From Candidatus Buchananbacteria bacterium (lineage in GTDB: Bacteria; Patescibacteriota; Patescibacteriia; Buchananbacterales; UBA6539): a DNA stretch of 64,000 nt. A program made the translations under genes and the position numbers. The stretch's first letter is position 1. Each line of letters opens with the position of its first letter. Shown here piece by piece: positions 3,492-42,171 of the stretch. Where the stretch lies: the NCBI GenBank assembly GCA_013359225.1, contig JABWCG010000001.1, forward strand, positions 432,916-496,915, in the 5' to 3' direction. Under the pieces are notes generated by a model that searched no databases, was not told the origin of the DNA, and worked only from the letters and a program-made list of their open reading frames with translations.

Positions 3492-4037
3492 ATGCCAAAA
3501 CAAACACTACAACAAGGTCGTCGCTGGTACGTCATCCATACCTACTCCGGTTACGAGGAAAACGTCAAACGAAACCTCGAACAGCGTATTGAATCAATGG
3601 ATATGGAAGATAAAATTTTTAATGTTTTGATCCCTACCGAAAAAAAGATCAAGATTAAAAACGGCAAACGTAAAGTAGTAACTGAGAAAATCTTTCCTGG
3701 CTACGTCCTGGTTGAAATGGTTGTTGATGATAACTCCTGGTACGTCGTGCGAAACACCCCGAACGTTACCGGTTTCATCGGTTCTGGCACTACCCCAACC
3801 CCCATTTCTGAAAGTGAAATTAAAAACTTACAGAAACGAATGGGTGTTGAAGAACCAACCTTCAAAATTGATGTCACTGTCGGCGCGCCAGTTCGAATCA
3901 CCGACGGCCCGTTCAAAGGTTATGAAGGTAAAGTCAATAAAATTGATGAGGATCGCGGTAAAATTAAAGTCTTGGTTTCGATGTTTGGCCGCGAAACGCC
4001 AGTTGAGCTCGATTTCCTACAAGTTAAAAAAATCTAA
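3492..4037 (+). CDS. nusG: Transcription termination/antitermination factor NusG
   Basis: 181 aa. The N-terminal NGN domain (RWYVIHTYSGYEENV) and a C-terminal KOW motif (GPFKGYEGKV) are present. It lies in the secE-nusG-rplK-rplA synteny. Confidence 0.92.
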   Translation: MPKQTLQQGRRWYVIHTYSGYEENVKRNLEQRIESMDMEDKIFNVLIPTEKKIKIKNGKRKVVTEKIFPGYVLVEMVVDDNSWYVVRNTPNVTGFIGSGTTPTPISESEIKNLQKRMGVEEPTFKIDVTVGAPVRITDGPFKGYEGKVNKIDEDRGKIKVLVSMFGRETPVELDFLQVKKI

Positions 4038-4062
4038 TGCAAAATTATAATTATCTAACCTT

Positions 4063-4488
4063 ATGGCTAAGAAAGTAAAAACAGTTATTAAACTGCAAAT
4101 CACCGGGGGGCAAGCTAATCCAGCACCACCAGTTGGTCCGGCGCTCGGTCAGCATGGTTTAAACATTGCTGAATTCTGTCAGCGTTTTAATGAGGCAACC
4201 CGCGATCGTCAGGGCGAAGTGACACCGGTTGAAATCACTGTCTATGAAGATCGAACTTATAGTTTTATCACTAAAACCCCTCCTGCCGCTGAACTACTAA
4301 AGAAAGTGGCCGGCGTGCCCAAGGGTTCAGGCGAGCCGCTTAAGAAAAAAATCGGCAAAATCACCCGGGCTCAGATTAAAGATATCGCTCAAAAGAAAAT
4401 GCCCGATTTAAACGCCAAAGATATCGAAGGCGCAATGAAGATTATTGAAGGCACTGCCCGACAGATGGGCTTGGAAGTTGTTGACTAA
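4063..4488 (+). CDS. rplK: 50S ribosomal protein L11
   Basis: 141 aa. The N-terminus reads [35 protein letters not shown]. Confidence 0.95.
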
Positions 4489-27022: not shown

Positions 27023-30000
27023 TTATAAATTGTTTAAATTATTAAAGCGGCAGGTACAATCGGATTTTTTCGCCGGCCACGGATATTCCAAGATGGCTTT
27101 AATAGTTTTTACCATTTTGCGCGACAAGTTATCCAAATCTTTTTGGGAACCGATAAAAGACGCCTTGGTACCGTCTTCCAAATAATAGTACGTCAATTTT
27201 TCAACGGTTTCTCCGAGATGCTGACTTGCAGCTAATTGATAAATTAATAACTGGTTTTTATCTTCTGGCTCTAGGCGATCCTGTTTCTTGCTAGCGCCAG
27301 TCTTATAATCAATTAGCTCAACACCATTATTAATCTGATCAACCCGGTCGATTTTACCAATCAGCGTATAATGCTCACCGCTCTCTTCATCTTTTAAATG
27401 AAGATTAAAAGGCGTTTCTAAAAATTTTGGCACTGTTAATTCTTTTTCATACTGCTGATAGAAATCTTTAAGCATTCGTCGGCCATTGGCCTTGTATTCG
27501 TCATGCTCTCGGCGAGTACCATACCAATCATCAATCCAAACCCGTTCGTAAATTTCCAACAACTCTTCCAAGCTAACCAGTGGTTTTTTGACAGCCGTTA
27601 AGCCCTTTTTACTACCAAATAAATCTTGCTGGCCAACATCTGAACGTTCTTTCACCTTTAAAAAGAAATTCTGCAAAGTGGCGTGGATTGAAGAACCAAA
27701 CGAAAAAAAGTTTTTACCGCGCTGCGGAATCTTTAGGATATACTCCAACCAATAATGATAGGGACAGTTTTCAAAAGAGTTTAGCTGAGTGAAAGAAAAC
27801 TTTTTTGGCAACAAATAGCTAATGTCGTCAGACTCGATTTTTCTGACCGTAACTTCCGAGGCGGACGGTGCCAACTTGAGCTTATGTTTAACAGTTTTTT
27901 CTTCAGGCTGGTCAAGCGGCAACCCGAGCGTTGCCAACTCCGCCAAAAACCGAGAAATCTTTTTTTGCCGGCTGCCACCGTAATCTGAAGCGCTCGTTAA
28001 ATACAATCCGGATTTTGCCCGCGTCATGGCCACATAAAAAAGCCGGCGCTCTTCTTGCAAGTGTACATCGCCTTGAGGCAAAATTTCTTTCACCAAAGAA
28101 TCGGGCAGACTAATGGGATCGGGACGATTATCAGTCGGAAATCGCCGGTCAACCATCGTGACTACCCACACATACTGAAATTCCAGCCCTTTAGCAGCAT
28201 GAATCGTCATCACTTTAACCGCGTCCGGACCCTCATCCATATTTTGTTCCAAATCCCCCGTCTGACCGGCTTCCAACTCAAGATTCATTAATTCCAAAAA
28301 ATTCTTGACTGACGGATCTTGCGCCGACTGTTCAAAATCATTAATTCGTTTATAAAACTGATTTAAATATGCCGTCGTTTGAATCATTTCCGCGTTCTCA
28401 TCCTTAGTCATATGTTGCAGATAACCAGAGTCTTCCAAGAAGGCCATAACCACTTCTGTCACCGATCTATCACGGGCAATTTGAGTGTGACGCTCTACTA
28501 AGCCTAAAAATTTCTGAATTTTTGATCTGGTATCCATGTCGGCCTGACGAACCACTTCTGGTTGCTGTATTGTTGCAAATAATGAATAGCCTTTGCGACG
28601 CGCCCAGTAATTAAGCTGAACAATTGTCCGGTCTGGCAAACCAACGATTGGTGAATTTAAAATCCGGTATACCGCGCTGCTTTCATGATAATCATCCAGC
28701 AACCTCAGATAAGCCAAAATATCCAATACCACTGGTTTTAAATAAAGGCCGCGCGACGCCACAAAGCGGTACGGAATTTGAGTTTGACTCAATGCCTGAG
28801 AAAAAAAGTTGGCGACTTCATTTGTTCGGGCCAAAATAGCAAAATCGCCCCAACTGGCATCCGGATTTTTTTCTTTCAGATCAGCAATGTGCTTAAGCAC
28901 TGCCCGGACTTCATCGTCGGCCGTCTCAAAATGAAAGTGACAAATTTCTCCCTTCTCCTTATTTTGAGAAATTAATTTTTTTGTTAAGGCGGCCGGCGCT
29001 TTTTTATTCTTTGCCAATTTTACCTCAAGCCGGTTTGGATTATTCTGCTGAATAAAACTATATGATAAATCAAGAATATTTTGGGTTGAACGATAATTTT
29101 TTGTCAGAAAAACTTCTTTGGAATTTTTATAATCTTTTTTAAACTCTAAAATATTAGAAACCGACGCCCCGCGAAATTTATAAATTGACTGATCATCATC
29201 ACCGACTACAGTAATATTTTGATTGGGTTCAGCTAATAATTTTACCAACTCATACTGGGCATAATTGGTGTCTTGAAATTCATCAACTAAAATATATTTA
29301 AACTTCTGGCGATATTTAGCTAATACAGCCGGCCGAGTTTTAAACAGTTTTAAACAATAGTTAATCAAGTCGCCAAAATCAAGCGCGTTATTTTCCAGCA
29401 GCAATTGCTGATAGACGTGATAGGCATTAGCCACTTCCTGTACTTTTTTAATTTCTTGTGCTACTAATTCTTTTCGTTCTTGCTTACTTAATGTTTTAAT
29501 TTCATCCTGACTCAAAAAATCTTTAATAAAATCAGCCCCGTCGGCGTTTAGTTGTAAATTTTTAGCGTATTCCAAATAATCCTGGGCTGAGATAACTTCA
29601 TCTTTTGCCCGCGAGAAAAGTTTGATTAACGCATGAATGAATTTAGTCGGATTGCCAAGCGGTTTATAAAAATCAAGTTCAAATTTATCTAGGTTCTGCC
29701 TGATCAGCATCCACTGTTCCGTTTGGTTTAACATTTTAAAATCATTAGGCACACCAATCTCAAGCGCATGTTGCTGCAAAATTTTTTCGGCAAAGGCGTG
29801 AAAAGTTAAGATCCATAAATCAACATAGCCATACGGCAACAGTCGATCAACCCGTTCTGCCATTTCGGTGGCCGCTTTTTCCGTAAACGTTAAAGCCAAA
29901 ACCTCGTCCGCCTTAGCTTTCTCCTGTTCAATCAACCAGCCAATCCGTTGAGTAATTACCGTCGTTTTCCCGGTTCCCGCACCGGCGACAATCAAAAGAG

Positions 30001-30064
30001 GCCCGGCATCATGAGTTACAGCCTGCCTTTGTTCGTCATTTAAACTTTTAAGATTAATTTCCAT
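27023..30064 (-). CDS. UvrD/PcrA-family helicase fused to a C-terminal Cys-containing PD-(D/E)xK (RecB/Cas4-like) nuclease
   Basis: 1013 aa. The Walker A reads AGAGTGKTT, and UvrD helicase motifs I-VI are present. The C-terminus has CPYHYW, GKIDRVD, ELIDYKTG, QLLIYQLA and a terminal CTC cysteine cluster. Confidence 0.88.
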   Translation of the reverse strand: MEINLKSLNDEQRQAVTHDAGPLLIVAGAGTGKTTVITQRIGWLIEQEKAKADEVLALTFTEKAATEMAERVDRLLPYGYVDLWILTFHAFAEKILQQHALEIGVPNDFKMLNQTEQWMLIRQNLDKFELDFYKPLGNPTKFIHALIKLFSRAKDEVISAQDYLEYAKNLQLNADGADFIKDFLSQDEIKTLSKQERKELVAQEIKKVQEVANAYHVYQQLLLENNALDFGDLINYCLKLFKTRPAVLAKYRQKFKYILVDEFQDTNYAQYELVKLLAEPNQNITVVGDDDQSIYKFRGASVSNILEFKKDYKNSKEVFLTKNYRSTQNILDLSYSFIQQNNPNRLEVKLAKNKKAPAALTKKLISQNKEKGEICHFHFETADDEVRAVLKHIADLKEKNPDASWGDFAILARTNEVANFFSQALSQTQIPYRFVASRGLYLKPVVLDILAYLRLLDDYHESSAVYRILNSPIVGLPDRTIVQLNYWARRKGYSLFATIQQPEVVRQADMDTRSKIQKFLGLVERHTQIARDRSVTEVVMAFLEDSGYLQHMTKDENAEMIQTTAYLNQFYKRINDFEQSAQDPSVKNFLELMNLELEAGQTGDLEQNMDEGPDAVKVMTIHAAKGLEFQYVWVVTMVDRRFPTDNRPDPISLPDSLVKEILPQGDVHLQEERRLFYVAMTRAKSGLYLTSASDYGGSRQKKISRFLAELATLGLPLDQPEEKTVKHKLKLAPSASEVTVRKIESDDISYLLPKKFSFTQLNSFENCPYHYWLEYILKIPQRGKNFFSFGSSIHATLQNFFLKVKERSDVGQQDLFGSKKGLTAVKKPLVSLEELLEIYERVWIDDWYGTRREHDEYKANGRRMLKDFYQQYEKELTVPKFLETPFNLHLKDEESGEHYTLIGKIDRVDQINNGVELIDYKTGASKKQDRLEPEDKNQLLIYQLAASQHLGETVEKLTYYYLEDGTKASFIGSQKDLDNLSRKMVKTIKAILEYPWPAKKSDCTCRFNNLNNL

Positions 30065-30141: not shown

Positions 30142-30152
30142 AAGTCAAGGTT

Positions 30153-30326
30153 CTATTTCTTTTTTGCAGCCCCCAACCAGGCCACACAGTCTCGACAATA
30201 CATGCCCCCATTTGTTCGACACTTCTTACAGGCCTTAGTGTCTGGCACGATATCGCACCTATGAGGACGCCCCGGATATTTAGCCTTACCACCACCGTCA
30301 TAGTTATGGCTTGGCTTTTTGCTCAT
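30153..30326 (-). CDS. Cys-rich zinc-ribbon microprotein (57 aa); below the ORF-track length cutoff
   Basis: The translation is MSKKPSHNYDGGGKAKYPGRPHRCDIVPDTKACKKCRTNGGMYCRDCVAWLGAAKKK. Its ATG overlaps the pyrF stop in an ATGA arrangement, indicating translational coupling. A terminator follows. Confidence 0.4.
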   Translation of the reverse strand: MSKKPSHNYDGGGKAKYPGRPHRCDIVPDTKACKKCRTNGGMYCRDCVAWLGAAKKK

Positions 30327-31165
30327 GCAGTCTGCTCCAGAGCAGCATTGATTTGATCGCGTAGCTCACAGGCTCGTTGCCCGGCGACTTCCGCAAAATC
30401 AGCCTCAGACGAGGCGTGAATAATGCCTCGTGACGAATTAATGACAAACGGATATGTCCTGGCGTATCTGACGGTTTCCAGTAATTCACCTCCCTGGGAA
30501 CCAACGCCGGGAATCAGGAGCGGAATTTCCGCGGGCCGCCAAATGGGGTTGTCGGTCCCCAAAAATTTAATCTGACCCGGAAATGTTGCTCCCATCACAA
30601 ACCCAATCCGGGTACTTTCCTCGGTTTGCAATGCAGCAACTTCGTGAGCCAGATAAACGAATAACGGTTTGCCGCCGCCAACGCAGTCCTCCTGAAACTT
30701 GGCCGCGCCCTTATTGCTGGTATGCGACAAAACGTACAGTCCTTTCGCCGCGCCCCACCTCAACCACGGCGCCAATGTGTCGGTACCCAGGTAGGCATTG
30801 AGCGTCACGGCATCAGCGCCGAATCGTTCAAATGCCGCGACGGCATATTTCTCGGCCGTGTTGCCAATGTCGCCATACTTGGCGTCCAAGATAACCGGCA
30901 AGCAAACCTCCGACTGAATAAAGCTGATCAGTTTTGCCAGCTCCGGTTCGGCTTCGCAGCTTTGCCAAAAAGCCAAATTCGGTTTGTAGCAACATGCGTA
31001 CGGCGCAGTCCGCTCGACAATATCGCTTGCAAACCGGATCAACTGTTCCCGCAGACTGCCTTTGAGCACTGGCAGTTTATCAGGGTCGGGATCCAACCCA
31101 ACACAGACGCGAGTTTGGTGCTGAGCCTGAATCTCGCACAATCGGTCCAGAAAAGATATCATCAC
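30323..31165 (-). CDS. pyrF: Orotidine-5'-phosphate decarboxylase, type 2 (long, actinobacterial-like form); high GC
   Basis: 280 aa. The N-terminal RVCVGLDPDPDKL and overall length fit type-2 OMP decarboxylase. GC is about 55% against a genome background of about 40%. Confidence 0.8.
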   Translation of the reverse strand: MMISFLDRLCEIQAQHQTRVCVGLDPDPDKLPVLKGSLREQLIRFASDIVERTAPYACCYKPNLAFWQSCEAEPELAKLISFIQSEVCLPVILDAKYGDIGNTAEKYAVAAFERFGADAVTLNAYLGTDTLAPWLRWGAAKGLYVLSHTSNKGAAKFQEDCVGGGKPLFVYLAHEVAALQTEESTRIGFVMGATFPGQIKFLGTDNPIWRPAEIPLLIPGVGSQGGELLETVRYARTYPFVINSSRGIIHASSEADFAEVAGQRACELRDQINAALEQTA

Positions 31166-31190
31166 GAAATCTCCTTTTTTCGTCCCGGCG

Positions 31191-31883
31191 CTAGAGTGCT
31201 AACACACCGCGCGGCACGGAACTTTGCGGATGACGCTCGTAAAACTCCTTGCCGTGACCAACCATCATATTGATCGGCACAAGATCAGCACACTGTGGGC
31301 AGGTTTCTTCCGGGTGCATCACCATCGGAATATCATACAGCGTTTCAAGAACCGGAACGCCAAGCTGTTCAGCAGTAATGCCGCCGCGGTTACAAATCAC
31401 CGCCACTCCGGCGACAATGCCACCAACCTCATTAACAGCGTTAATCGTCGCCACGGCGGAACCACCGCTGGCAAACACGTCTTCAGTCACGAGCCCGTTT
31501 TGGCCAGCGACAATTGTCGGGAAATAACGGCCGATGACACGTTCTCCCTTTTTAACACCGTCGCCTGTCTTTTCCTGGGCAAACACCCAGTTAACTTCCC
31601 GACCAGTGATCCGGCTCAGCCAACACGCTGTCGCCGCTGCCAGACCAACCGCACCATACGTCGGTCCGATCACAACGCTGATGTCGTGATCAACGAAACG
31701 CAAGGCGATGATTCGGGCGGCTGCCGAAAGCAGCCGACCGCTGGACAACAGTCGATCCTTGTCAAAGTACCCGGGAGCATGAAAATGCCCGGCGGGCTTA
31801 GGAGTTAACACGACATGGTCGTCGGTCAAAATCGCTCCTCGAGCTTTGGCAGCTTCAAGGATTTCAGCCAAACTCATCTCCAT
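31191..31883 (-). CDS. pyrE: Type I phosphoribosyltransferase, orotate PRTase-like; start at the internal Met (MEMSLAEILE) preceded by GGAGG; high GC
   Basis: The PRTase PRPP-binding motif LVTEDVFASGGS is present. It lies directly upstream of pyrF in the same orientation. There is an unusual C-terminal extension containing CPQC. Confidence 0.55.
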   Translation of the reverse strand: MEMSLAEILEAAKARGAILTDDHVVLTPKPAGHFHAPGYFDKDRLLSSGRLLSAAARIIALRFVDHDISVVIGPTYGAVGLAAATACWLSRITGREVNWVFAQEKTGDGVKKGERVIGRYFPTIVAGQNGLVTEDVFASGGSAVATINAVNEVGGIVAGVAVICNRGGITAEQLGVPVLETLYDIPMVMHPEETCPQCADLVPINMMVGHGKEFYERHPQSSVPRGVLAL

Positions 31884-32041
31884 ACGACTTTTCCTCCTGT
31901 AACCGGTTGTTTTATTCGCCAGAATAAATAGATTGGAAGGTACACAGCCCCCCAACTGCCTAATTACTTTAGTTAGTATTAAAAATAAAGTCAAGGATAA
32001 TTTTTATCTCAATTAAGCTAAAATATAGGCCTGAATCAATC

Positions 32042-32073
32042 AAAAATTCCTGCTATATATGCAGGAATTTTTT
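32042..32073. terminator. Bidirectional rho-independent terminator
   Basis: A perfect stem ATTCCTGC / GCAGGAAT with a loop TATATAT, flanked by AAAA upstream and TTTTTT downstream. Confidence 0.6.
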
Positions 32074-32158
32074 AACGGCAAAATAACCTAAAACAAATCT
32101 TTAGATTTTTTTATACTAGGATTCTTTCGCTTCAACCGCGAAATCAATATCTAAAAAA

Positions 32159-32278
32159 CTAGTAGCAGCACTCGCCAGCCGGTTTTCCGGAACCGCAGTC
32201 GCATGGCTCTGCCGCACCGCAGCACTCGCCATACGGACGTTCTGACCCGCAAGGGCAATCGTCACCCAAATGTGGCAT
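32159..32278 (-). CDS. SEC-C motif microprotein (39 aa) with two tandem SEC-C metal-binding motifs; not in the ORF track
   Basis: The translation is MPHLGDDCPCGSERPYGECCGAAEPCDCGSGKPAGECCY. The two motifs CPCGSERPYGECCG and CDCGSGKPAGECCY match the SecA C-terminal SEC-C consensus CPCGSGKKYKxCCG. It begins 8 nt after the tatD stop, and a terminator follows. Confidence 0.4.
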   Translation of the reverse strand: MPHLGDDCPCGSERPYGECCGAAEPCDCGSGKPAGECCY

Positions 32279-32286
32279 ATTGTAGG

Positions 32287-33087
32287 TTATGAATTAAATT
32301 TAAATAAATTAAATGAATTTTTAGTCATCTCCTCCACTACTGTAGTATAAGAAACACTCTTAATTTCTGCAATCTTTTCCGCCACCTGTCTCACATATTG
32401 TGGCTGATTTCGTTTGCCGCGATGCGGCTCCGGTGCTAGGTACGGTGAATCAGTTTCAATCAGCATTGAACTTAAAGAAATCTTACTGGCGATTTCCGGC
32501 AACTTGCCGGTTTTGTCAAAAGTAACAATACCGGTAAAGCCAACGTAGAAACCTAATTCTGAAAATTCCAAAGCCTGACTTAAATTACCACCATAGCAAT
32601 GCACCACTCCTCGATTATATTTTTCAGTTTTAACAATATTTAAAATTTCCTGATATGCATCTTTGGTCCCATCCTTGCTGTTACGACCATGAATAATTAT
32701 CGGCAAATCAAATTCTTTAGCCAGCCGTATCTGTTTAGTAAAAACTTTTTTTTGATTTTCAAAATTACTGTCACTGTGAAAAAAATCAATACCGGTCTCA
32801 CCAATTGCGACAATTTTTTTAGAACTTAACACTAACGCTCGATAATCATCAACATTAAAAGCTTCCGGATGAAATTCACTGCCAGAGACATGAATCGGGT
32901 GCAGCCCAATTGCCGCATAAACACCCCTTTCATATTGTTGGGCAATATCTACGGCCCGACGACTCGTTGCTAGTTGCGCCCCCACATTGATCATCCATAT
33001 TTCATGCTGTTGACAGTCGGCAATCACTTCCTGCCAATCCGATTCAAACGCCTCAAAATTTACGTGAGCATGAGTATCAATGATCAT
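32287..33087 (-). CDS. tatD: TatD-family metal-dependent hydrolase/DNase
   Basis: 266 aa. The N-terminal IDTHAHV motif and other TatD His/Glu/Asp metal ligands are present. Confidence 0.85.
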   Translation of the reverse strand: MIIDTHAHVNFEAFESDWQEVIADCQQHEIWMINVGAQLATSRRAVDIAQQYERGVYAAIGLHPIHVSGSEFHPEAFNVDDYRALVLSSKKIVAIGETGIDFFHSDSNFENQKKVFTKQIRLAKEFDLPIIIHGRNSKDGTKDAYQEILNIVKTEKYNRGVVHCYGGNLSQALEFSELGFYVGFTGIVTFDKTGKLPEIASKISLSSMLIETDSPYLAPEPHRGKRNQPQYVRQVAEKIAEIKSVSYTTVVEEMTKNSFNLFKFNS

Positions 33088-33605
33088 ACAACCGCTTTAA
33101 TTATTTCCGGTAATAACGGAGTTAGAATTGACGCTAATTGAATCAATAGCTGAGCAACCTGGGAGCCAGCTACGGCCGTCTGCCACCAATCTATCGGCGC
33201 CAGCTGAACCGTAAAATAAACTATCGTACCAATCGCCAATACGGCTTCAATTAAACCGAACAAGGCACCAAGAATTCTGTTGAAACTCTTGGCAAACGGA
33301 ATAATTGAAATCAAATTAAAAATTTTATTAACTAGCCAAAAAGCTAAGCCGACCAGGCGATTGACAATCGTGAACAACAAAATAAACGCAATCACTCGCG
33401 CGGCGACAGCATTGCCTAAAAGAATAATCTCCAACCAACCGGCAACCGGCTCATAGTACATTCCCGCTAACCATGTACCCGCCACGACTCCCACCAATGC
33501 GCCGATACTCTGTACCAACCCCAGAGCAAATCCAAATGCGACAAATGCAAAAATAACAAGGATTAAAACTAAATCAAGAATGCTTAAATACATATAGTTA
33601 ATCAA
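33084..33605 (-). CDS. CvpA-family membrane protein
   Basis: 173 aa, 4 TM helices, CvpA-like N-terminal pattern. It overlaps metG and tatD by 4-8 nt. Confidence 0.55.
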   Translation of the reverse strand: MINYMYLSILDLVLILVIFAFVAFGFALGLVQSIGALVGVVAGTWLAGMYYEPVAGWLEIILLGNAVAARVIAFILLFTIVNRLVGLAFWLVNKIFNLISIIPFAKSFNRILGALFGLIEAVLAIGTIVYFTVQLAPIDWWQTAVAGSQVAQLLIQLASILTPLLPEIIKAVV

Positions 33606-35028
33606 GGCGCGGGAATAATGGCTCGCCTTTGGTTATTTTTTTAGCGGTTATAATTTGTTCAATCCTAGCAGCAGTTTCCGGCAAAAATGGCGACAAAAGC
33701 TGGCTGATTTCGTAAATTTCCTGAGCCGACTGCTGAAGAATCTTTTCGACTTCCTTCGATTTTCCTTCTTTAGCTAACTGCCAGGGCTTAGTTTCCGAAA
33801 CCAACCCGTCAACGCGAGCCATCTTATCCCAAATGAACTTTAGTACCTGATCAAACAAGAATCCGTCTATTAAGCGGTAGAATTCTTCCGGAGCCTGATA
33901 CTTAGTCTTGATTCTAACGCTGACATTATTTTGCTCAATTAACCCGACGATTCGGTTGACCAAATTCCCTAAACCATTAGCCAAATCGGAATTATATGCC
34001 TCCTTGAGGCGGCTCTCGGAAAAATCACTGTCCTGGACCGGGTGGATATAGCGCAACAAATAGTAGCGGACTGGCTCAACTCCATACTGTCGAATAAGAC
34101 TAAATGGATCAACAACATTGCCAAGCGACTTAGACATCTTGCCCCCGTCAATATTGATATAACCATGAACAAATAACTTTTCCGGCAATGGCAAACCAGC
34201 GGAGAGTAGCATCGCTGGCCAGTACACCGCATGAAATCTGATAATGCCCTTACCAACGGTATGGACATCGGCCGGCCAAAACTTTTTAAACAGCTTGCCG
34301 GATGTATCATAATCAATACCAGTGATATAGTTACTCAACGCGTCAAACCAAACATACATCACTTGGTTTTGGTCGCCGGGTACCGGCACGCCCCAATGTT
34401 TCGCCCGAGCCTGAGATCGGGAAATTGAAAAATCTTCAAGCCCCATTTTAATAAAACTTAAAACTTCATTCTTGCGAGACTCTGGTACGATTTGGTATTT
34501 ATCTGACTCAATTAATTGCTCCAAAATTTTTTGGTAATTAGAAAGTTTGAAAAAATAATTTTCTTCTTCAACTACATCCGGTTTGGTTTGATGTTCCGGG
34601 CACTTGCCGTCAATAAGCTCTTTTTCCGTATAAAATTGTTCACAGCCAACACAGTAAAGTCCCTTGTACTTTTTTTTATAGATGTCTTCCGGCTTGCAGG
34701 CCGCCCATAATTTTTGAGCGCCGGCAAAATGCTTATCCGAGACTGTTCGAATAAAATCATCATTGGAAATATTTAAAGCCTTTGCAAGATCAATAAATTT
34801 TTGAGTGTTTTTATCAACTAGCGCCCTAACTGAAATTCCTTCTTTTTCTGCCGTCTGAACGTTTTTTAAACTGTTTTCATCGGCACCTGTTAAGAAAAAA
34901 ACCTGTTCGCCAATCTGGCGATGATATCTAGCGACCACATCAGCTTGAATTAACTCAAAAGCAAAACCAATATGCGGACTGGCATTAACATACGGAATAG
35001 CTGTAGTAATATAAAATTTCTTTGGCAT
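33598..35028 (-). CDS. metG: Methionyl-tRNA synthetase (short form)
   Basis: 476 aa. The HIGH motif (PHIGFA), KMSKS, and a zinc knuckle (CVGCEQF...CPEH) are present. Confidence 0.93.
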   Translation of the reverse strand: MPKKFYITTAIPYVNASPHIGFAFELIQADVVARYHRQIGEQVFFLTGADENSLKNVQTAEKEGISVRALVDKNTQKFIDLAKALNISNDDFIRTVSDKHFAGAQKLWAACKPEDIYKKKYKGLYCVGCEQFYTEKELIDGKCPEHQTKPDVVEEENYFFKLSNYQKILEQLIESDKYQIVPESRKNEVLSFIKMGLEDFSISRSQARAKHWGVPVPGDQNQVMYVWFDALSNYITGIDYDTSGKLFKKFWPADVHTVGKGIIRFHAVYWPAMLLSAGLPLPEKLFVHGYINIDGGKMSKSLGNVVDPFSLIRQYGVEPVRYYLLRYIHPVQDSDFSESRLKEAYNSDLANGLGNLVNRIVGLIEQNNVSVRIKTKYQAPEEFYRLIDGFLFDQVLKFIWDKMARVDGLVSETKPWQLAKEGKSKEVEKILQQSAQEIYEISQLLSPFLPETAARIEQIITAKKITKGEPLFPRLD

Positions 35029-35694
35029 TTATTTATTTCCTATAACGACAACAAATTCTCCTTTAGTCTCTTCATTTGTTATATTATTTAAAACCTCTTG
35101 GGCAGTGCCGCGATAAACCGTTTCAAACTTCTTGGTTAATTCTCGCGCCACAACAATCTGGCGAGTTAACCCTGCTGCAATTAATTGCTCCAACGCCTTT
35201 ATGATCCGGTGAACTGATTCGTAAAACACGACCGTATGATCAGACTCAATAATTTTTTTGATCAAAGTCTCCCGACCTTTTTTGTGAGGTAAAAAACCAA
35301 AAAAGGTAAAACGATCTGTTGGGAATCCCGACAACGCCAAGGCGGCCGTCAAAGCACTAGCACCAGGAACCGATTCAACCGTAATGCCTTCCGCGACTGC
35401 CGAGGCCACCAACAACCCACCGGGATCTGAGATGCCCGGCGTGCCGGCATCAGAAACTAGCGCAACGTGCTTTCCTGATTGTAATTTTGAAATTAAAAAG
35501 TCGACCTTACCGACTTTACTGTGTTGATGATAGCTCACCGTGGGCGTAACAATCTGATAATGGTCTAACAGCCTCTTGGTTACCCGAGTATCTTCGCAGG
35601 CAATAACATCAACCGTTTTCAAAATTTCCAAGGCCCGCAAGGTGATATCTTTAAGGTTACCAATTGGTGTTGAAACCACGTAGAGAATTCCCAT
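35029..35694 (-). CDS. rsmI: 16S rRNA (cytidine1402-2'-O)-methyltransferase RsmI; start at the internal Met MGILYVV
   Basis: Tetrapyrrole-methylase-fold motifs YVVSTPIGNLKDITLRALEIL and ACEDTR are present. Confidence 0.85.
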   Translation of the reverse strand: MGILYVVSTPIGNLKDITLRALEILKTVDVIACEDTRVTKRLLDHYQIVTPTVSYHQHSKVGKVDFLISKLQSGKHVALVSDAGTPGISDPGGLLVASAVAEGITVESVPGASALTAALALSGFPTDRFTFFGFLPHKKGRETLIKKIIESDHTVVFYESVHRIIKALEQLIAAGLTRQIVVARELTKKFETVYRGTAQEVLNNITNEETKGEFVVVIGNK

Positions 35695-35741
35695 ATACTT
35701 AAAAATACCACAAAAATCATCGTTTTTCAAGTTTAATTTAC

Positions 35742-37285: not shown

Positions 37286-38866
37286 TTATTGTCTTTTTAG
37301 CCTCAAAGAACGCTGATAAGTAATGGCAAAACGGTGAGCCTCATCTCTAATGCGTTGCAATAATTTTAAGGCCGATGAACGCTTTGAAAGACGAATCGGA
37401 TATTTACTCTTCAGGGTGTAAATTTCTTCCTCTTTTTTTGCTAAAGCAATAAGCGGTATTTGATCCAAACCCAATGCCGACAACGACTGACGTGCGGCCG
37501 AAAGTTGGGGTTTGCCGCCGTCAACCATAATTAAATCCGGCAGTTGTTCCTGCTGCTTGGTAATTCGGTAATACCGACGATACACCACCTCCTTCATAGC
37601 GTCAAAATCCGATTGTCCCTGAAAAGTTTTTATTTTAAACCGCCGATAATTATCCTTGTCTGGTTTGCCCTGATCAAACCGAACCATTGAAGCAACAACA
37701 TCAGACGGCCCTAAATTAGAAATATCAAACGCTTCAATTATTCTTGGCGAACTCGTTAGCCCGAGAACGTTCTGCAATTCAAACAAATTGGCCTCGCCTG
37801 TCTGCAAATTTATTTCAATATTTTTTTTAACTAACTCCAAGAGCTTTAGCTTGTCTCCTTTTTGGGGAACAATGATCTTAAGCCGATGTCCTGCTAGGTT
37901 AGAAAAATACTGCTCTAAAATATTTTGATCAGCAAGCTGAATCGGCAGAATAATTTCTTGCGGGATATCTTGTGTATAGTAATATTGGGAAAGAAAATCA
38001 GCCAGGTTTACTGCCGGTTCTGTGCTTAAAGGAGTTTGAAATGTAAACTCTTTACGGCCGGAAATAATTCCTTTATTAATATTAAATAATTGAACAACTA
38101 ATTTGTTCGGCGTCTGAATATAGTTTATAACATCCTGATCATAGTTACGGCGCAGTTCAATTTTTTGTTTTTGAGCAATGTTCTCCAGAGCCATAATCTG
38201 ATCACGTCTAATTTTAGCTTGCTCAAAATTATTCTGAGCGGCATACTCATGCATTTCCGATTGTAATTTTTTAATCAACTCTTCATTTTGACCTTTTAAA
38301 AGCAGTCGCACTCGGTCAACTCGCTGTCGGTATTCAATCTGGCTAATTTCCTCAGACCACGGCGAGGTTGCCAATTTAATCCGTCCTCGTTGAATCTCTT
38401 TCTTGGTCATCCGTTTATTGACTCTCATTTTGAATAATCGATTTGCGATTCTCACTAACTCTTGCCGAGCCTGGCCGGAAGCATAGGGACCGTAGACTTC
38501 ATCACTATTTTTAAAGGATCGTACGGCGACTAGTCTGGGGTATTCTTCATTGGTTATCAGCAGATGGGCATAGCGCTTTCCAGCTTTTAACTCAATGTTA
38601 TATTTTGGCTGGTGCTTATTAATCAATCGGGCTTCTAACAAAAATGCTTCAAGTTCGTTATCAGTAATAAAAAAATCAACGTCACTTATTTTTTTCACCA
38701 GCTCGACAGTTTTAGAATCTAAATCATATTTATGAAAATAACTCTTAACCCGTTTACTGATATTTTTTGCTTTGCCAATATAAATAATTCTCCCGTTTTT
38801 ATCCTTAAAGATATAACAACCGGGATTTTGTGGTGAATCTTTAATTTTTTGCTTTAAATTAGACAT
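37286..38866 (-). CDS. uvrC: Excinuclease ABC subunit C; start taken at MSNLKQKIK, 18 codons inside the track ORF
   Basis: The GIY-YIG domain (GCYIFKDKNGRIIYIGKAKNISKRV) is present. UvrBC-interaction, RNaseH-like and HhH domains are present. Confidence 0.9.
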   Translation of the reverse strand: MSNLKQKIKDSPQNPGCYIFKDKNGRIIYIGKAKNISKRVKSYFHKYDLDSKTVELVKKISDVDFFITDNELEAFLLEARLINKHQPKYNIELKAGKRYAHLLITNEEYPRLVAVRSFKNSDEVYGPYASGQARQELVRIANRLFKMRVNKRMTKKEIQRGRIKLATSPWSEEISQIEYRQRVDRVRLLLKGQNEELIKKLQSEMHEYAAQNNFEQAKIRRDQIMALENIAQKQKIELRRNYDQDVINYIQTPNKLVVQLFNINKGIISGRKEFTFQTPLSTEPAVNLADFLSQYYYTQDIPQEIILPIQLADQNILEQYFSNLAGHRLKIIVPQKGDKLKLLELVKKNIEINLQTGEANLFELQNVLGLTSSPRIIEAFDISNLGPSDVVASMVRFDQGKPDKDNYRRFKIKTFQGQSDFDAMKEVVYRRYYRITKQQEQLPDLIMVDGGKPQLSAARQSLSALGLDQIPLIALAKKEEEIYTLKSKYPIRLSKRSSALKLLQRIRDEAHRFAITYQRSLRLKRQ

Positions 38867-38871
38867 TTTCG

Positions 38872-38900
38872 TTGACAATAATATAGTACCATGATATAGT
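38872..38900 (+). promoter_or_regulatory. Candidate promoter for gene 38946-39308 (TTGACA, 17-nt spacer, TATAGT)
   Basis: Consensus -35 with optimal spacing. A GGAG Shine-Dalgarno lies 8 nt before the ATG. Confidence 0.4.
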
Positions 38901-38945
38901 TCATTTTTCATGGTTTTCACTCATCTGGCAACTTGGAGAATATAG

Positions 38946-39345: not shown

Positions 39346-42171
39346 TTATCCTAAAACTTTTTTTAAATACTTACCGGTATAACTCCACTTAGCACACTTC
39401 GCAATTTTTTCCGGCGTACCCTCGGCCACAATTCTACCGCCCCGATCACCGCCTTCCGGACCTAAATCAATAATCCAATCGGCTGATTTAATGACATCCA
39501 AATTATGTTCAATAACCAAAACGCTATTCCCTTTATCAACCAATCTGTTTAAGACTCCAAGCAGTCGGGCAACATCGTCAAAATGAAGCCCGGTTGTTGG
39601 CTCGTCAAGAATATATAGCGTATTTCCACCCTTGCGCGACAATTCAGAAGTTAGCTTAATTCGCTGAGCTTCACCCCCGGAAAGCGTAGTGGCACTCTGC
39701 CCAAGGGCAATATATCCCAAACCAACGTCATAAAGAGTTTGTAGTTTATTTTTGATAGCCGTGACATTCTTAAAAAACTCCAACGCTTCTTCAACGGTCA
39801 TATTAAGCACTTGCGAAATATTTTTGTCTTTATATTTCACTTCAAGTGTTTCATGATTATAACGTGTTCCTTTACATTGCTCACATTCAACATAAACATC
39901 CGGCAAAAAATGCATTTCGATTTTTTTTACACCGTCTCCTTCGCATTCCTCGCACCGACCGCCGCTGACATTAAAACTAAACCGCCCCGGCTTATAGCCC
40001 CTCAACCTTGCCTCGGGAGTCTGGGCAAATAAATCACGAATTAACGTAAAAACTCCAATGTATGTCACGGGATTACTGCGTGGCGTCCGACCAATTGGCG
40101 ACTGATCGACAATAATAGCTTTGTCTAAATTGCCATACCCTTTCAATGCCTTATGTTTTCCCGGCTTATCCGTGCTGGCCCAAAATATTTTATACAGTGC
40201 TTTGTACAAAATATCGTTAATTAAACTACTTTTGCCGGAACCAGACACCCCGGTGACACAAGTAAACACTTTCAACGGAATTTTAACATCGATGTTCTTC
40301 AAATTATTCTGAGCGGCGCCGATAATTTCAAGGTAATCAAACGCCCGACGCCGTTTATCGGGAACTTCAATCTTCTTTTCACCCGTCAGATACTGGCCCG
40401 TGATTGATTTTTTGCTCTTTTTGATCTGCTCTGGAGTCCCGGCAAAGGTTATCTCGCCGCCATGAATTCCTGCCCCCGGACCCAAATCAATAACATAGTC
40501 GGCTGCTAAAATAGTGTCTTCATCGTGTTCAACAACAATCACCGTATTGCCAAGGTCTTTAAGATGACGCAGCGTTTTAATAAGCTTCTCATTATCACGC
40601 TGGTGCAAACCGATTGACGGCTCATCAAGAATATATAAAACTCCTCGCAATTCAGAACCAATTTGAGTGGCCAATCTGATTCGTTGAGCTTCTCCCCCGG
40701 AAAGTGTTCTTGCTTCACGTGACAGAGTCAGATAATCAAGCCCGACGTCAACCAAAAACTGCAGCCGATTTTTAATTTCCTGTAAAATCAACTTGGCAAT
40801 TTCTGATTGCTCTTTATTGAGCTTTAGGCTAGCAAAAAAATCAACCAGCTTGCCGATTGAAACCTGCCCGACATCCCAAATGTTCTGATCATTTATAGTA
40901 ACTGCTAAAGTTTCAGGCTTTAACCGCTTACCTTGACACGATTGGCAATTGCCAATTCGCATATACTTTTCCATTTCTCGACGACGATATTCAGAATCAG
41001 TCTGTTTATAAAGCCGCTCAATCTGAGGAATAATACCTTCAAACTCACCAATCCAACTGTAGCTTGATCCTTTTTTGCTTGACGTCAGATGAAAATCAAT
41101 GTCTTCAGTTGAACCATATAAAATAATATTTTGAATTTTTTCCGGCAAATCTTTGAATGGTGTCCATAAATCAAATTTATAGTGTTCAGCCAGGCCTTCT
41201 AAAAGTTGCTGCCGCCAGCCTTCACCATAAGTCTGCCACGGCTTAACCGCCCCTTCGGCCAGCGACAAGCTGGAGTTTGGTATTACCAGATCCCGATCAA
41301 CCTGCTGCAAAAAACCTAACCCATGGCATTGAGGGCAGGCACCAAATGGCGAATTAAAAGAAAACATTCTTGGCTGTAATTCTTCAATTGAAATACCGCA
41401 ATCAAGACACGCATTATGCTGAGAAAACAATCGTTCAGTGTCGCCAATGATCACTAGGACTAGGCCGTCCGCTTCAGAAAGCGCAACCTCAATCGAATCA
41501 GTTAAACGGTTAGCTACTCCTTTTTTAATAATCAGGCGATCAACAATTAATTCAATGGCATGCTTGGTCTGTTTATTAAGCTTGAAATCTTCCCAGTCAT
41601 CAAGATCTTTTACCTCACCATTAATTCTAATTCGACTAAAACCTTTTTGTTGCAAATCAGAAAATAACTTTTCGTATGTTCCTTTTTTGCCCCTGATAAT
41701 CGGCGCTAGAATTTGAATTTTTGAGCCCGCTTTCTCTTTTTGAATTATTTCACTAATAATCTCTGCTGACTGAGGCGTAATTAATTTGCCGCAGTTCGGA
41801 CAATGCGGCACACCCACTCTGGCATACAAGAGACGAAGGTAATCATAAATTTCAGTGATCGTACCGACGGTTGACCGAGGATTTTTTGAAATTGATTTTT
41901 GCTCAATTGAGATTGCCGGCGACAAACCGGTAATTTTATCAACGTCCGGTTTATTCATTAACCCTAAAAATTGTCGAGCATAAGCCGACAAACTCTCAAC
42001 ATACCGCCGCTGACCTTCGGCGTACAACGTATCAAAAGCTAATGTTGATTTACCAGAACCAGACAAACCGGTGATAACCGTCAACTGGTCAATCGGAATT
42101 TCAGCATTAATATTCTTTAAGTTATGCTCTCGAGCACCCTTAATTACAATTTTTTCAGCATTTTTAGACAT
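39346..42171 (-). CDS. uvrA: Excinuclease ABC subunit A
   Basis: 941 aa with two ABC ATPase modules ([18 protein letters not shown]), zinc fingers and LSGGE signatures. Confidence 0.95.

Follow-up and report, generated by a model that had tools for sequence, protein, structure and literature searches.

A free-standing 39-residue protein of two tandem SEC-C knuckles, encoded behind tatD in Buchananbacteria

The minus strand of the window, by which we mean the whole 64-kb stretch of DNA analysed, carries at 32159–32278 a coding sequence of 39 codons that runs from an ATG start to a TAG stop (included in these coordinates) and encodes the peptide MPHLGDDCPCGSERPYGECCGAAEPCDCGSGKPAGECCY. The ORF is free-standing, with in-frame stops on both sides of its 39 codons. 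Pfam-A finds a single family in the peptide, SEC-C (PF02810), in two matched stretches, with E = 1.4e-8 and a score of 34.9 bits that passes the gathering cut-off of 20.4; there is no match other than SEC-C at E ≤ 1. Knuckle 1, CPCGSERPYGECC (32219–32257, minus strand), contains Cys8, Cys10, Cys19 and Cys20 together with Ser12 and Tyr16, and knuckle 2, CDCGSGKPAGECC (32165–32203, minus strand), contains Cys26, Cys28, Cys37, Cys38 and Ser30. Both are canonical CxCx8CC knuckles in an overall arrangement of CxCx8CC-x5-CxCx8CC, and both show the CxCx8C[CH] ligand spacing and the Ser after CxCG. Directly after knuckle 2 the chain ends with Tyr39, which is invariant in 15 orthologues, and the peptide as a whole is acidic, with 7 Asp/Glu vs 2 Lys/Arg. 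When the pattern C.C.{8}C[CH] is searched for in the six-frame translation of the 64-kb window, only two matches are returned, and both lie in the microprotein. A chance origin of the motifs is therefore excluded, in agreement with the initial annotation, which had picked out the two SEC-C motifs and judged their chance occurrence implausible. Its description of the ORF as unannotated is incorrect, as GenBank already contains the exact sequence as NUM25475.1, "SEC-C domain-containing protein" (Candidatus Buchananbacteria bacterium), from a contig of 601,517 bp. The names of about a dozen close homologues likewise refer to the domain, and further ones are entered as "hypothetical protein". Because the ORF was already called and domain-named there, what is new is the characterization of the family and not the discovery of the ORF.

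The microprotein gene is preceded on the same strand by tatD (32287–33087), which encodes a TatD-family metal-dependent hydrolase (PF01026 TatD_DNase, E = 6e-74; NUM25476.1) and belongs to the same transcription unit. Since tatD ends at 32287 and the ATG lies at 32278, the two are separated by a spacer of 8 nt (32279–32286), exactly as had been proposed. Further upstream, again on the minus strand, cvpA (33084–33605; colicin V production membrane protein family, PF02674) overlaps tatD by 4 nt, and metG (33598–35028), for methionyl-tRNA synthetase, overlaps cvpA by 8 nt; PF09334 is present in metG orthologues that are 50–76% identical. Finally, an rsmI-like TP_methylase gene (35029–35730, minus strand; PF00590) abuts metG with 0 nt between them and, as synteny indicates, is probably the first gene of the conserved block. 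The placement of the microprotein at the end of a metG-cvpA-tatD operon is thus borne out and extended to rsmI, with the whole block kept in 12 of 13 genomes.

Downstream of the gene there is an intrinsic-terminator-like hairpin (32042–32073, minus strand) with a perfect 12-bp stem, whose arms are AAAAAUUCCUGC and GCAGGAAUUUUU, a 7-nt loop, a U-run and an A-run upstream. The perfect terminator claimed to follow the ORF is accordingly real as a hairpin with a U-run, but it is not immediately adjacent, lying ~85 nt past the microprotein stop. A consensus terminator scan does not include this hairpin among its listed elements; a hairpin with a U-run is also found downstream of the microprotein gene at most orthologous loci. 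No Rfam family reaches threshold within 31000–33500 of the window, and the 29.5-bit match to STnc370 (gathering score 54) is no more than an overlap with this hairpin. The spacer ahead of the ATG contains no Shine-Dalgarno-like sequence, and no recognisable ribosome-binding site precedes the microprotein ATG in the window. Among 12 distinct orthologous loci, 10 have a gap of 2–14 nt from the tatD stop to the ATG. This short gap across loci, together with the missing Shine-Dalgarno sequence, makes it likely that translation of the microprotein is coupled to that of tatD, and expression of the window gene would rest on this assumed coupling. A strong AGGAGGTGA lies 5–8 nt ahead of the ATG in relatives from outside the candidate phyla radiation (CPR).

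The operon is flanked by DNA-repair genes, namely a UvrD-type helicase with a PD-(D/E)XK nuclease domain, uvrC and uvrA (window 27023–30064, 37286–38920 and 39346–42171), and UvrC and UvrD-like neighbours are found again in related genomes (for example, locus L002). The segment at 30150–31990, which holds pyrF and phosphoribosyltransferase genes, has a G+C content of 52–60% vs ~30–45% in its flanks, and it may have been replaced or acquired, since relatives have other versions or genes there. Within it lies a 57-aa Cys/Lys-rich ORF (30153–30326, minus strand; …CKKCRTNGGMYCRDC…), whose start codon and the pyrF stop codon overlap in ATGA; Pfam gives no match for it, and the protein collection does not contain its exact sequence.

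When one genome per species was scanned for orthologues of the microprotein, 13 Patescibacteria/Buchananbacteria genomes with an 82–92% identical peptide were returned. The thirteenth genome, in which the rsmI-metG-cvpA-tatD-microprotein block is not seen, is represented by a 3-kb contig (L021) on which none of the block neighbours is detected. All 15 sequences compared share the ATG, the length of 39 codons and a stop right after CCY, and an in-frame stop lies 1–8 codons upstream of the ATG in all orthologues. Across the 15 orthologues, the variable columns at the three codon positions number 14, 15 and 38 of 39, and the Nei-Gojobori means are 0.75 for pS (saturated) and 0.10 for pN. In the same loci the peptide is 82–92% identical while TatD is 48–67%, MetG 50–76%, CvpA 46–66% and RsmI 59–73%, which makes the microprotein the best-conserved gene of its block. 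As judged from these comparisons, the ORF is a genuine protein-coding gene under strong purifying selection. The conservation in related genomes that the initial annotation had called for is thus present, in both the reading frame and the coding pattern of substitutions, and its concern that the segment might be a degraded remnant is dispelled.

The shortness of the ORF and the lack of a Shine-Dalgarno sequence in the window are what could be said for the view that nothing functional is encoded here, whether the ORF arose by chance, was left over from a longer SEC-C protein or is part of an RNA element. Against this stand the purifying selection in this very frame, the conserved start and stop, the in-frame stops upstream in all orthologues and the AGGAGGTGA of relatives outside the CPR, so that we give this view almost no weight. 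A chance ORF and the remnant of a longer gene are rejected by the conserved start, stop and length and by the pS of 0.75 vs pN of 0.10; an RNA element is rejected on the Rfam result given above. A RiPP precursor was also considered and rejected, the neighbours being tatD, cvpA, metG and phosphoribosyltransferase genes and the core being highly conserved. The gene shows that strong selection can act on very small genes in CPR genomes.

The closest known counterparts of the knuckles are the metal-binding domain of SecA (PDB 1SX0/1SX1, 1TM6, 1OZB) and YchJ (UPF0225; PDB 9L6B, 9VXG), a ROS-sensing regulator in Salmonella. With the SecA domain the microprotein shares the CxCx8C[CH] spacing, the Ser after CxCG and the aromatic residue of knuckle 1, and profile matches to structures of the SecA C-terminal metal-binding domain reach E values of 1e-5 to 5e-5. 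However, the SecA domain sits C-terminally on an ATPase after a flexible linker, whereas the microprotein is free-standing and duplicated, and its ligands are all Cys (CC) in place of the CH of SecA. The residues are different as well where E. coli SecA contacts SecB: the GSGKKYKQ of SecA corresponds to GSERPYGE and GSGKPAGE in the microprotein, which is acidic and without Lys-rich residues. YchJ is, to our knowledge, the only characterized protein with two SEC-C motifs, and its N-terminal motif is of the same CxCx8CC form. In YchJ, however, the motifs flank an NTF2-like domain (PF17775) of ~100 residues, whereas the two knuckles of the microprotein are joined by a five-residue linker with no PF17775 match; YchJ also has a DNA-binding basic region, and the microprotein has no other domain. 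The YchJ models of NCBIfam give only 13–14 bits on the microprotein vs cut-offs of 120–158. YecA (UPF0149), which copurifies with iron, has one C-terminal SEC-C motif, and its likeness to the microprotein is confined to that motif, as the large N-terminal UPF0149 domain is absent from the microprotein in both Pfam and NCBIfam.

Very small proteins with little beyond paired cysteines are known elsewhere. The small zinc-finger micro-proteins of Haloferax volcanii, such as HVO_2753, are ~40–60 aa long and consist only of paired Cys knuckles; they are archaeal and use a different motif, the C(P)XCG zinc ribbon, and no sequence relationship to the microprotein is detected. Bacterial metallothioneins (SmtA/BmtA) and desulforedoxin are likewise very small and Cys-rich, with CxC and CC pairs, and are candidate analogues for metal buffering or Fe(Cys)4 chemistry; the microprotein has no Pfam match to bacterial metallothionein, desulforedoxin or rubredoxin-type profiles.

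The AlphaFold2 model, built on an alignment of 50 sequences, has a mean pLDDT of 90.6 and shows two repeats of a strand-strand-short-helix unit. Both halves can be superposed on the knuckles of YchJ, of SecA and of SecA-SecB, at 0.5–0.8 Å. In Foldseek the best structural match of one knuckle is YchJ (9l6b_C; rmsd 0.5 Å over 18 residues), and one knuckle also matches the SecB-bound SecA peptide (1ozb_I; 0.5 Å over 20 residues) and SecA itself (1sx0; 0.8 Å over 19 residues). The PDB contains only the single knuckles of SecA and YchJ and no structure of a whole protein of this kind. The model predicts two separate mononuclear sites and no metal-thiolate cluster. The SecA metal-binding domain, which coordinates Zn through CxCx8C(H/C), has SecB and ribosomes as binding partners, and its preferred metal in vivo is iron, a preference to which the conserved Ser contributes; YecA and YchJ also copurify with iron, and binding of the ribosome/SecB type has been proposed for their SEC-C domains (bioRxiv 10.1101/613315). 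The crystal structure of YchJ from Salmonella shows Zn2+ bound by the N-terminal CxCx8CC motif, and the ROS-sensing cysteines of the C-terminal motif, Cys149/Cys150, form a ROS-induced intermolecular disulfide (PMC13377102). Because of this homology to SecA, YecA and YchJ, each knuckle of the microprotein is expected to bind one Zn2+ or Fe2+ through four thiolates.

Searching 1.84 billion representative proteins with a profile gave 84 representative clusters at E ≤ 1e-3, 60 of them ≤80 aa long, and most span both motifs in one stretch. Among the hits, the groundwater sites Rifle and Hainich predominate. Members occur in Clostridia, Bacillota, Actinomycetes, Deltaproteobacteria, Nitrospirota, Aminicenantes and Armatimonadetes, as well as in Peregrinibacteria, Staskawiczbacteria and other Parcubacteria, and a metagenome scan made with a narrower family alignment (A5) adds at least 263 relatives among the first 600 pattern matches. 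We define the family as proteins of ~36–80 aa with the arrangement CxCx8C[CH]-x5-CxCx8CC and no other domain. The window peptide falls within this definition and aligns end to end with 42–50 diverse members, across which 6 Cys are invariant and the other 2 are ≥90% conserved, the sole substitution being His, as in the CH of SecA. The Ser after each CxCG and the five-residue linker between the motifs are also found across these 42–50 members, and the variable parts are the N-termini and the C-terminal tails, which are often acidic. NCBIfam has no dedicated model, giving only sub-threshold single-motif matches to YchJ-like and SWIM/SEC-C models, and a full-text literature search returned no paper on free-standing tandem SEC-C proteins. 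Searches of plasmids and phages found no tandem SEC-C microprotein. The same tandem module is also fused C-terminally to an RNase_H_2-type predicted 3'-5' exonuclease (P0045), a TIR-domain protein (P0074) and a DUF378 membrane protein (P0063).

The ORFs lying up to 3 kb from the gene were clustered in 118 loci, and the neighbourhoods divided by subfamily. Subfamily A, the 39-aa type of the window, occurs in Buchananbacteria; tatD precedes it in 38 of 45 loci, and the others are mostly contigs of only 1–3 kb. Its neighbours are housekeeping and DNA-repair genes, not redox or metal genes. Subfamily B (MDEAQK...CFCGSGK...CCM..PE.H) occurs in Parcubacteria beside DUF5671, UPF0102 and CCA-adding enzyme genes. 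Subfamilies C, D and E, from Peregrinibacteria, Aminicenantes, Actinomycetes, Deltaproteobacteria and others, adjoin a Crp/Fnr gene in 16 loci and DsbD-thioredoxin genes in 8. As a rule, the Crp/Fnr gene directly precedes the microprotein gene on its strand, at a distance of 68–570 nt; it lies at 2746–3429 in L026, 4277–4897 in L027, 3412–4569 in L025, 5701–6381 in L040 and 2322–2996 in L045, and 11 further loci have one as well (L050, L051, L068, L089, L093–L095, L097, L103, L104 and L108). Single loci of these subfamilies also have thioredoxin, glutaredoxin, a MerT-like protein, MerR, ArsR, CopD, SMBP, DUF302, DUF2938 or multihaem cytochromes as neighbours. Of 7 distinct upstream regions from Peregrinibacteria, 6 (loci L027, L089, L094, L096, L097 and L104) have a Crp-type palindrome, (G/T)GTGA-N6-TCAC(C/T), 70–74 nt ahead of the ATG, and TGTAA-N6-TTACA is found upstream in two subfamily-D loci. 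No palindrome of this kind occurs in 32 upstream regions of subfamily A or 19 of subfamily B, and no Crp/Fnr gene is present within ~5–7 kb on either side in the window or beside the gene at any subfamily A or B locus. In another lineage (L037–L039 and L041–L044), a folC-like Mur-ligase gene and folD come directly after the microprotein gene, and in L041–L044 the first ~58 nt of the folC-like gene overlap with it.

Among the 118 loci, no lineage has a Sec gene as a conserved neighbour; a partial SecY gene ~2.9 kb from the microprotein gene is seen in one lineage only (L037/L038), and secA is not present in the 64-kb window. As the peptide is acidic, is not attached to SecA and has no conserved Sec neighbour, we think it less likely that the protein acts in Sec-dependent export. 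A mimic that binds SecB, in particular, was rejected, since the acidic peptide lacks basic residues of the KKYK type and conserved Sec neighbours. Of the candidate functions named in the initial annotation, the chaperone or adaptor mimic is weakened in this way, and the metal-buffering peptide is indirectly favoured by the neighbourhoods of relatives from other phyla.

Taken as a whole, we consider the better explanation to be that a real gene, coupled to tatD, encodes a two-metal thiolate microprotein for metal and/or thiol-redox homeostasis, and we hold this with some, though far from full, confidence. The product consists, in its 39 residues, solely of two SecA-type Cys4 knuckles and would be a cytoplasmic metalloprotein in which each knuckle binds one Zn2+ or Fe2+ by four thiolates. 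In Buchananbacteria its gene is the last cistron of rsmI-metG-cvpA-tatD, with translation probably coupled to tatD, and the protein may bind and hand over metal or report oxidation. A physiological role in metal or thiol-redox handling is weakly suggested by the neighbourhoods in other phyla, and it is these neighbourhoods, together with the 59–68% identity of subfamily A to members of other subfamilies, that lead us to rank the metal-thiolate role above the others. For subfamily A itself we infer the role by transfer, as the redox and metal neighbours occur in other subfamilies. Residues other than the ligands are very highly conserved in this lineage, as would be expected of a protein with a specific macromolecular partner more than of a simple metal buffer, and the C-terminal fusions of the tandem module likewise fit such a partner.

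The main rival takes this last point further and sees in the protein a portable binding module on its own, whose tandem knuckles dock on a conserved partner, such as the ribosome, TatD or another nuclease, as a regulator or competitor. The SEC-C domain of SecA binds SecB and ribosomes and those of YecA and YchJ are proposed to act alike (bioRxiv 10.1101/613315), the module is fused to unrelated enzymes and proteins, and its non-ligand residues are more conserved than all neighbouring genes. The 2–14 nt gap to tatD suggests a fixed stoichiometry with a nuclease-family protein, and this conserved tight coupling makes TatD a candidate partner. However, the link to tatD is restricted to one lineage, the exonuclease fusion is seen once, and the window peptide is acidic (7 vs 2) and without the SecB-contact basic patch, which makes binding to the ribosome or to nucleic acid unlikely for subfamily A. 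We regard the binding module as improbable, and the two readings that follow as weaker still. The protein could be a redox-switch partner of the adjoining Crp/Fnr regulator that releases it on thiolate oxidation or metal loss, in the manner of a zinc-containing anti-sigma factor. The Crp/Fnr gene in its immediate upstream position in several phyla argues for this, as does the evidence from YchJ that SEC-C cysteines can be ROS-sensing thiols (PMC13377102). The absence of such a regulator from the surroundings of the window gene and of every subfamily A or B gene, however, argues against it, and the Crp-type operator is equally explained if the gene is a mere regulated target; we find the switch partner very doubtful. 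Also highly unlikely is a two-centre Fe(Cys)4 electron carrier akin to rubredoxin or desulforedoxin. Both sites are all-Cys with an adjacent CC pair, as is found in desulforedoxin, and thioredoxin, DsbD and multihaem cytochromes adjoin the gene in other phyla; we know of no redox activity reported for any SEC-C domain, which counts against such a carrier. The preference of SecA-like domains for iron in vivo is consistent with it (bioRxiv 10.1101/613315), but Pfam finds only SEC-C at E ≤ 1 and there is no conserved oxidoreductase partner.

Returning to the metal-thiolate explanation, a broader form of it would have these proteins be an undescribed class of cytoplasmic metal-thiolate switches, controlled by Crp/Fnr and found with DsbD/thioredoxin and metal-resistance genes, of which Buchananbacteria would have one hard-wired into a housekeeping operon and translationally coupled to the TatD nuclease. 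This proposal is speculative and we think it unlikely; if true, a class of switches present in many phyla senses or relays oxidant or metal stress. The SEC-C knuckle is otherwise known to us only as an appendage, on SecA, YecA, YchJ and some methionine aminopeptidases, and its metal preference and role are still debated. A 39-residue protein of two knuckles is the minimal form of the module and offers a tractable test of what SEC-C domains do outside the Sec system. We found no published description of this architecture (SEC-C ×2 and nothing else), its breadth or its recurrent contexts. That the protein is better conserved than adjoining essential genes in a reduced-genome CPR bacterium and has relatives in many phyla, with a recurrent Crp/Fnr and thiol-redox neighbourhood among them, adds to its interest.

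Several further features were seen among the free-standing members. Long acidic C-terminal tails are present in P0051, P0024, P0026, P0016 and P0040; three of these end in an aromatic residue (e.g., ...DDDMGFDDDADDLDMDDDTNF) and recall the partner-binding acidic tails of other proteins. Two copies of the gene stand at separate places on the same 228-kb contig, Ga0209541_10000032 (L088 and L092), and two are also present in L045, at 2115–2255 and 4001–4144. Finally, mini-ORFs of 10–12 codons with a strong Shine-Dalgarno sequence lie just upstream of two SEC-C microprotein genes, at ~3920–3955 and ~2040–2080 of L045 (also in L046). Their products, MRGGKGGCGCG and MAIHGGKGGCGC, could be Cys/Gly-rich leader peptides.
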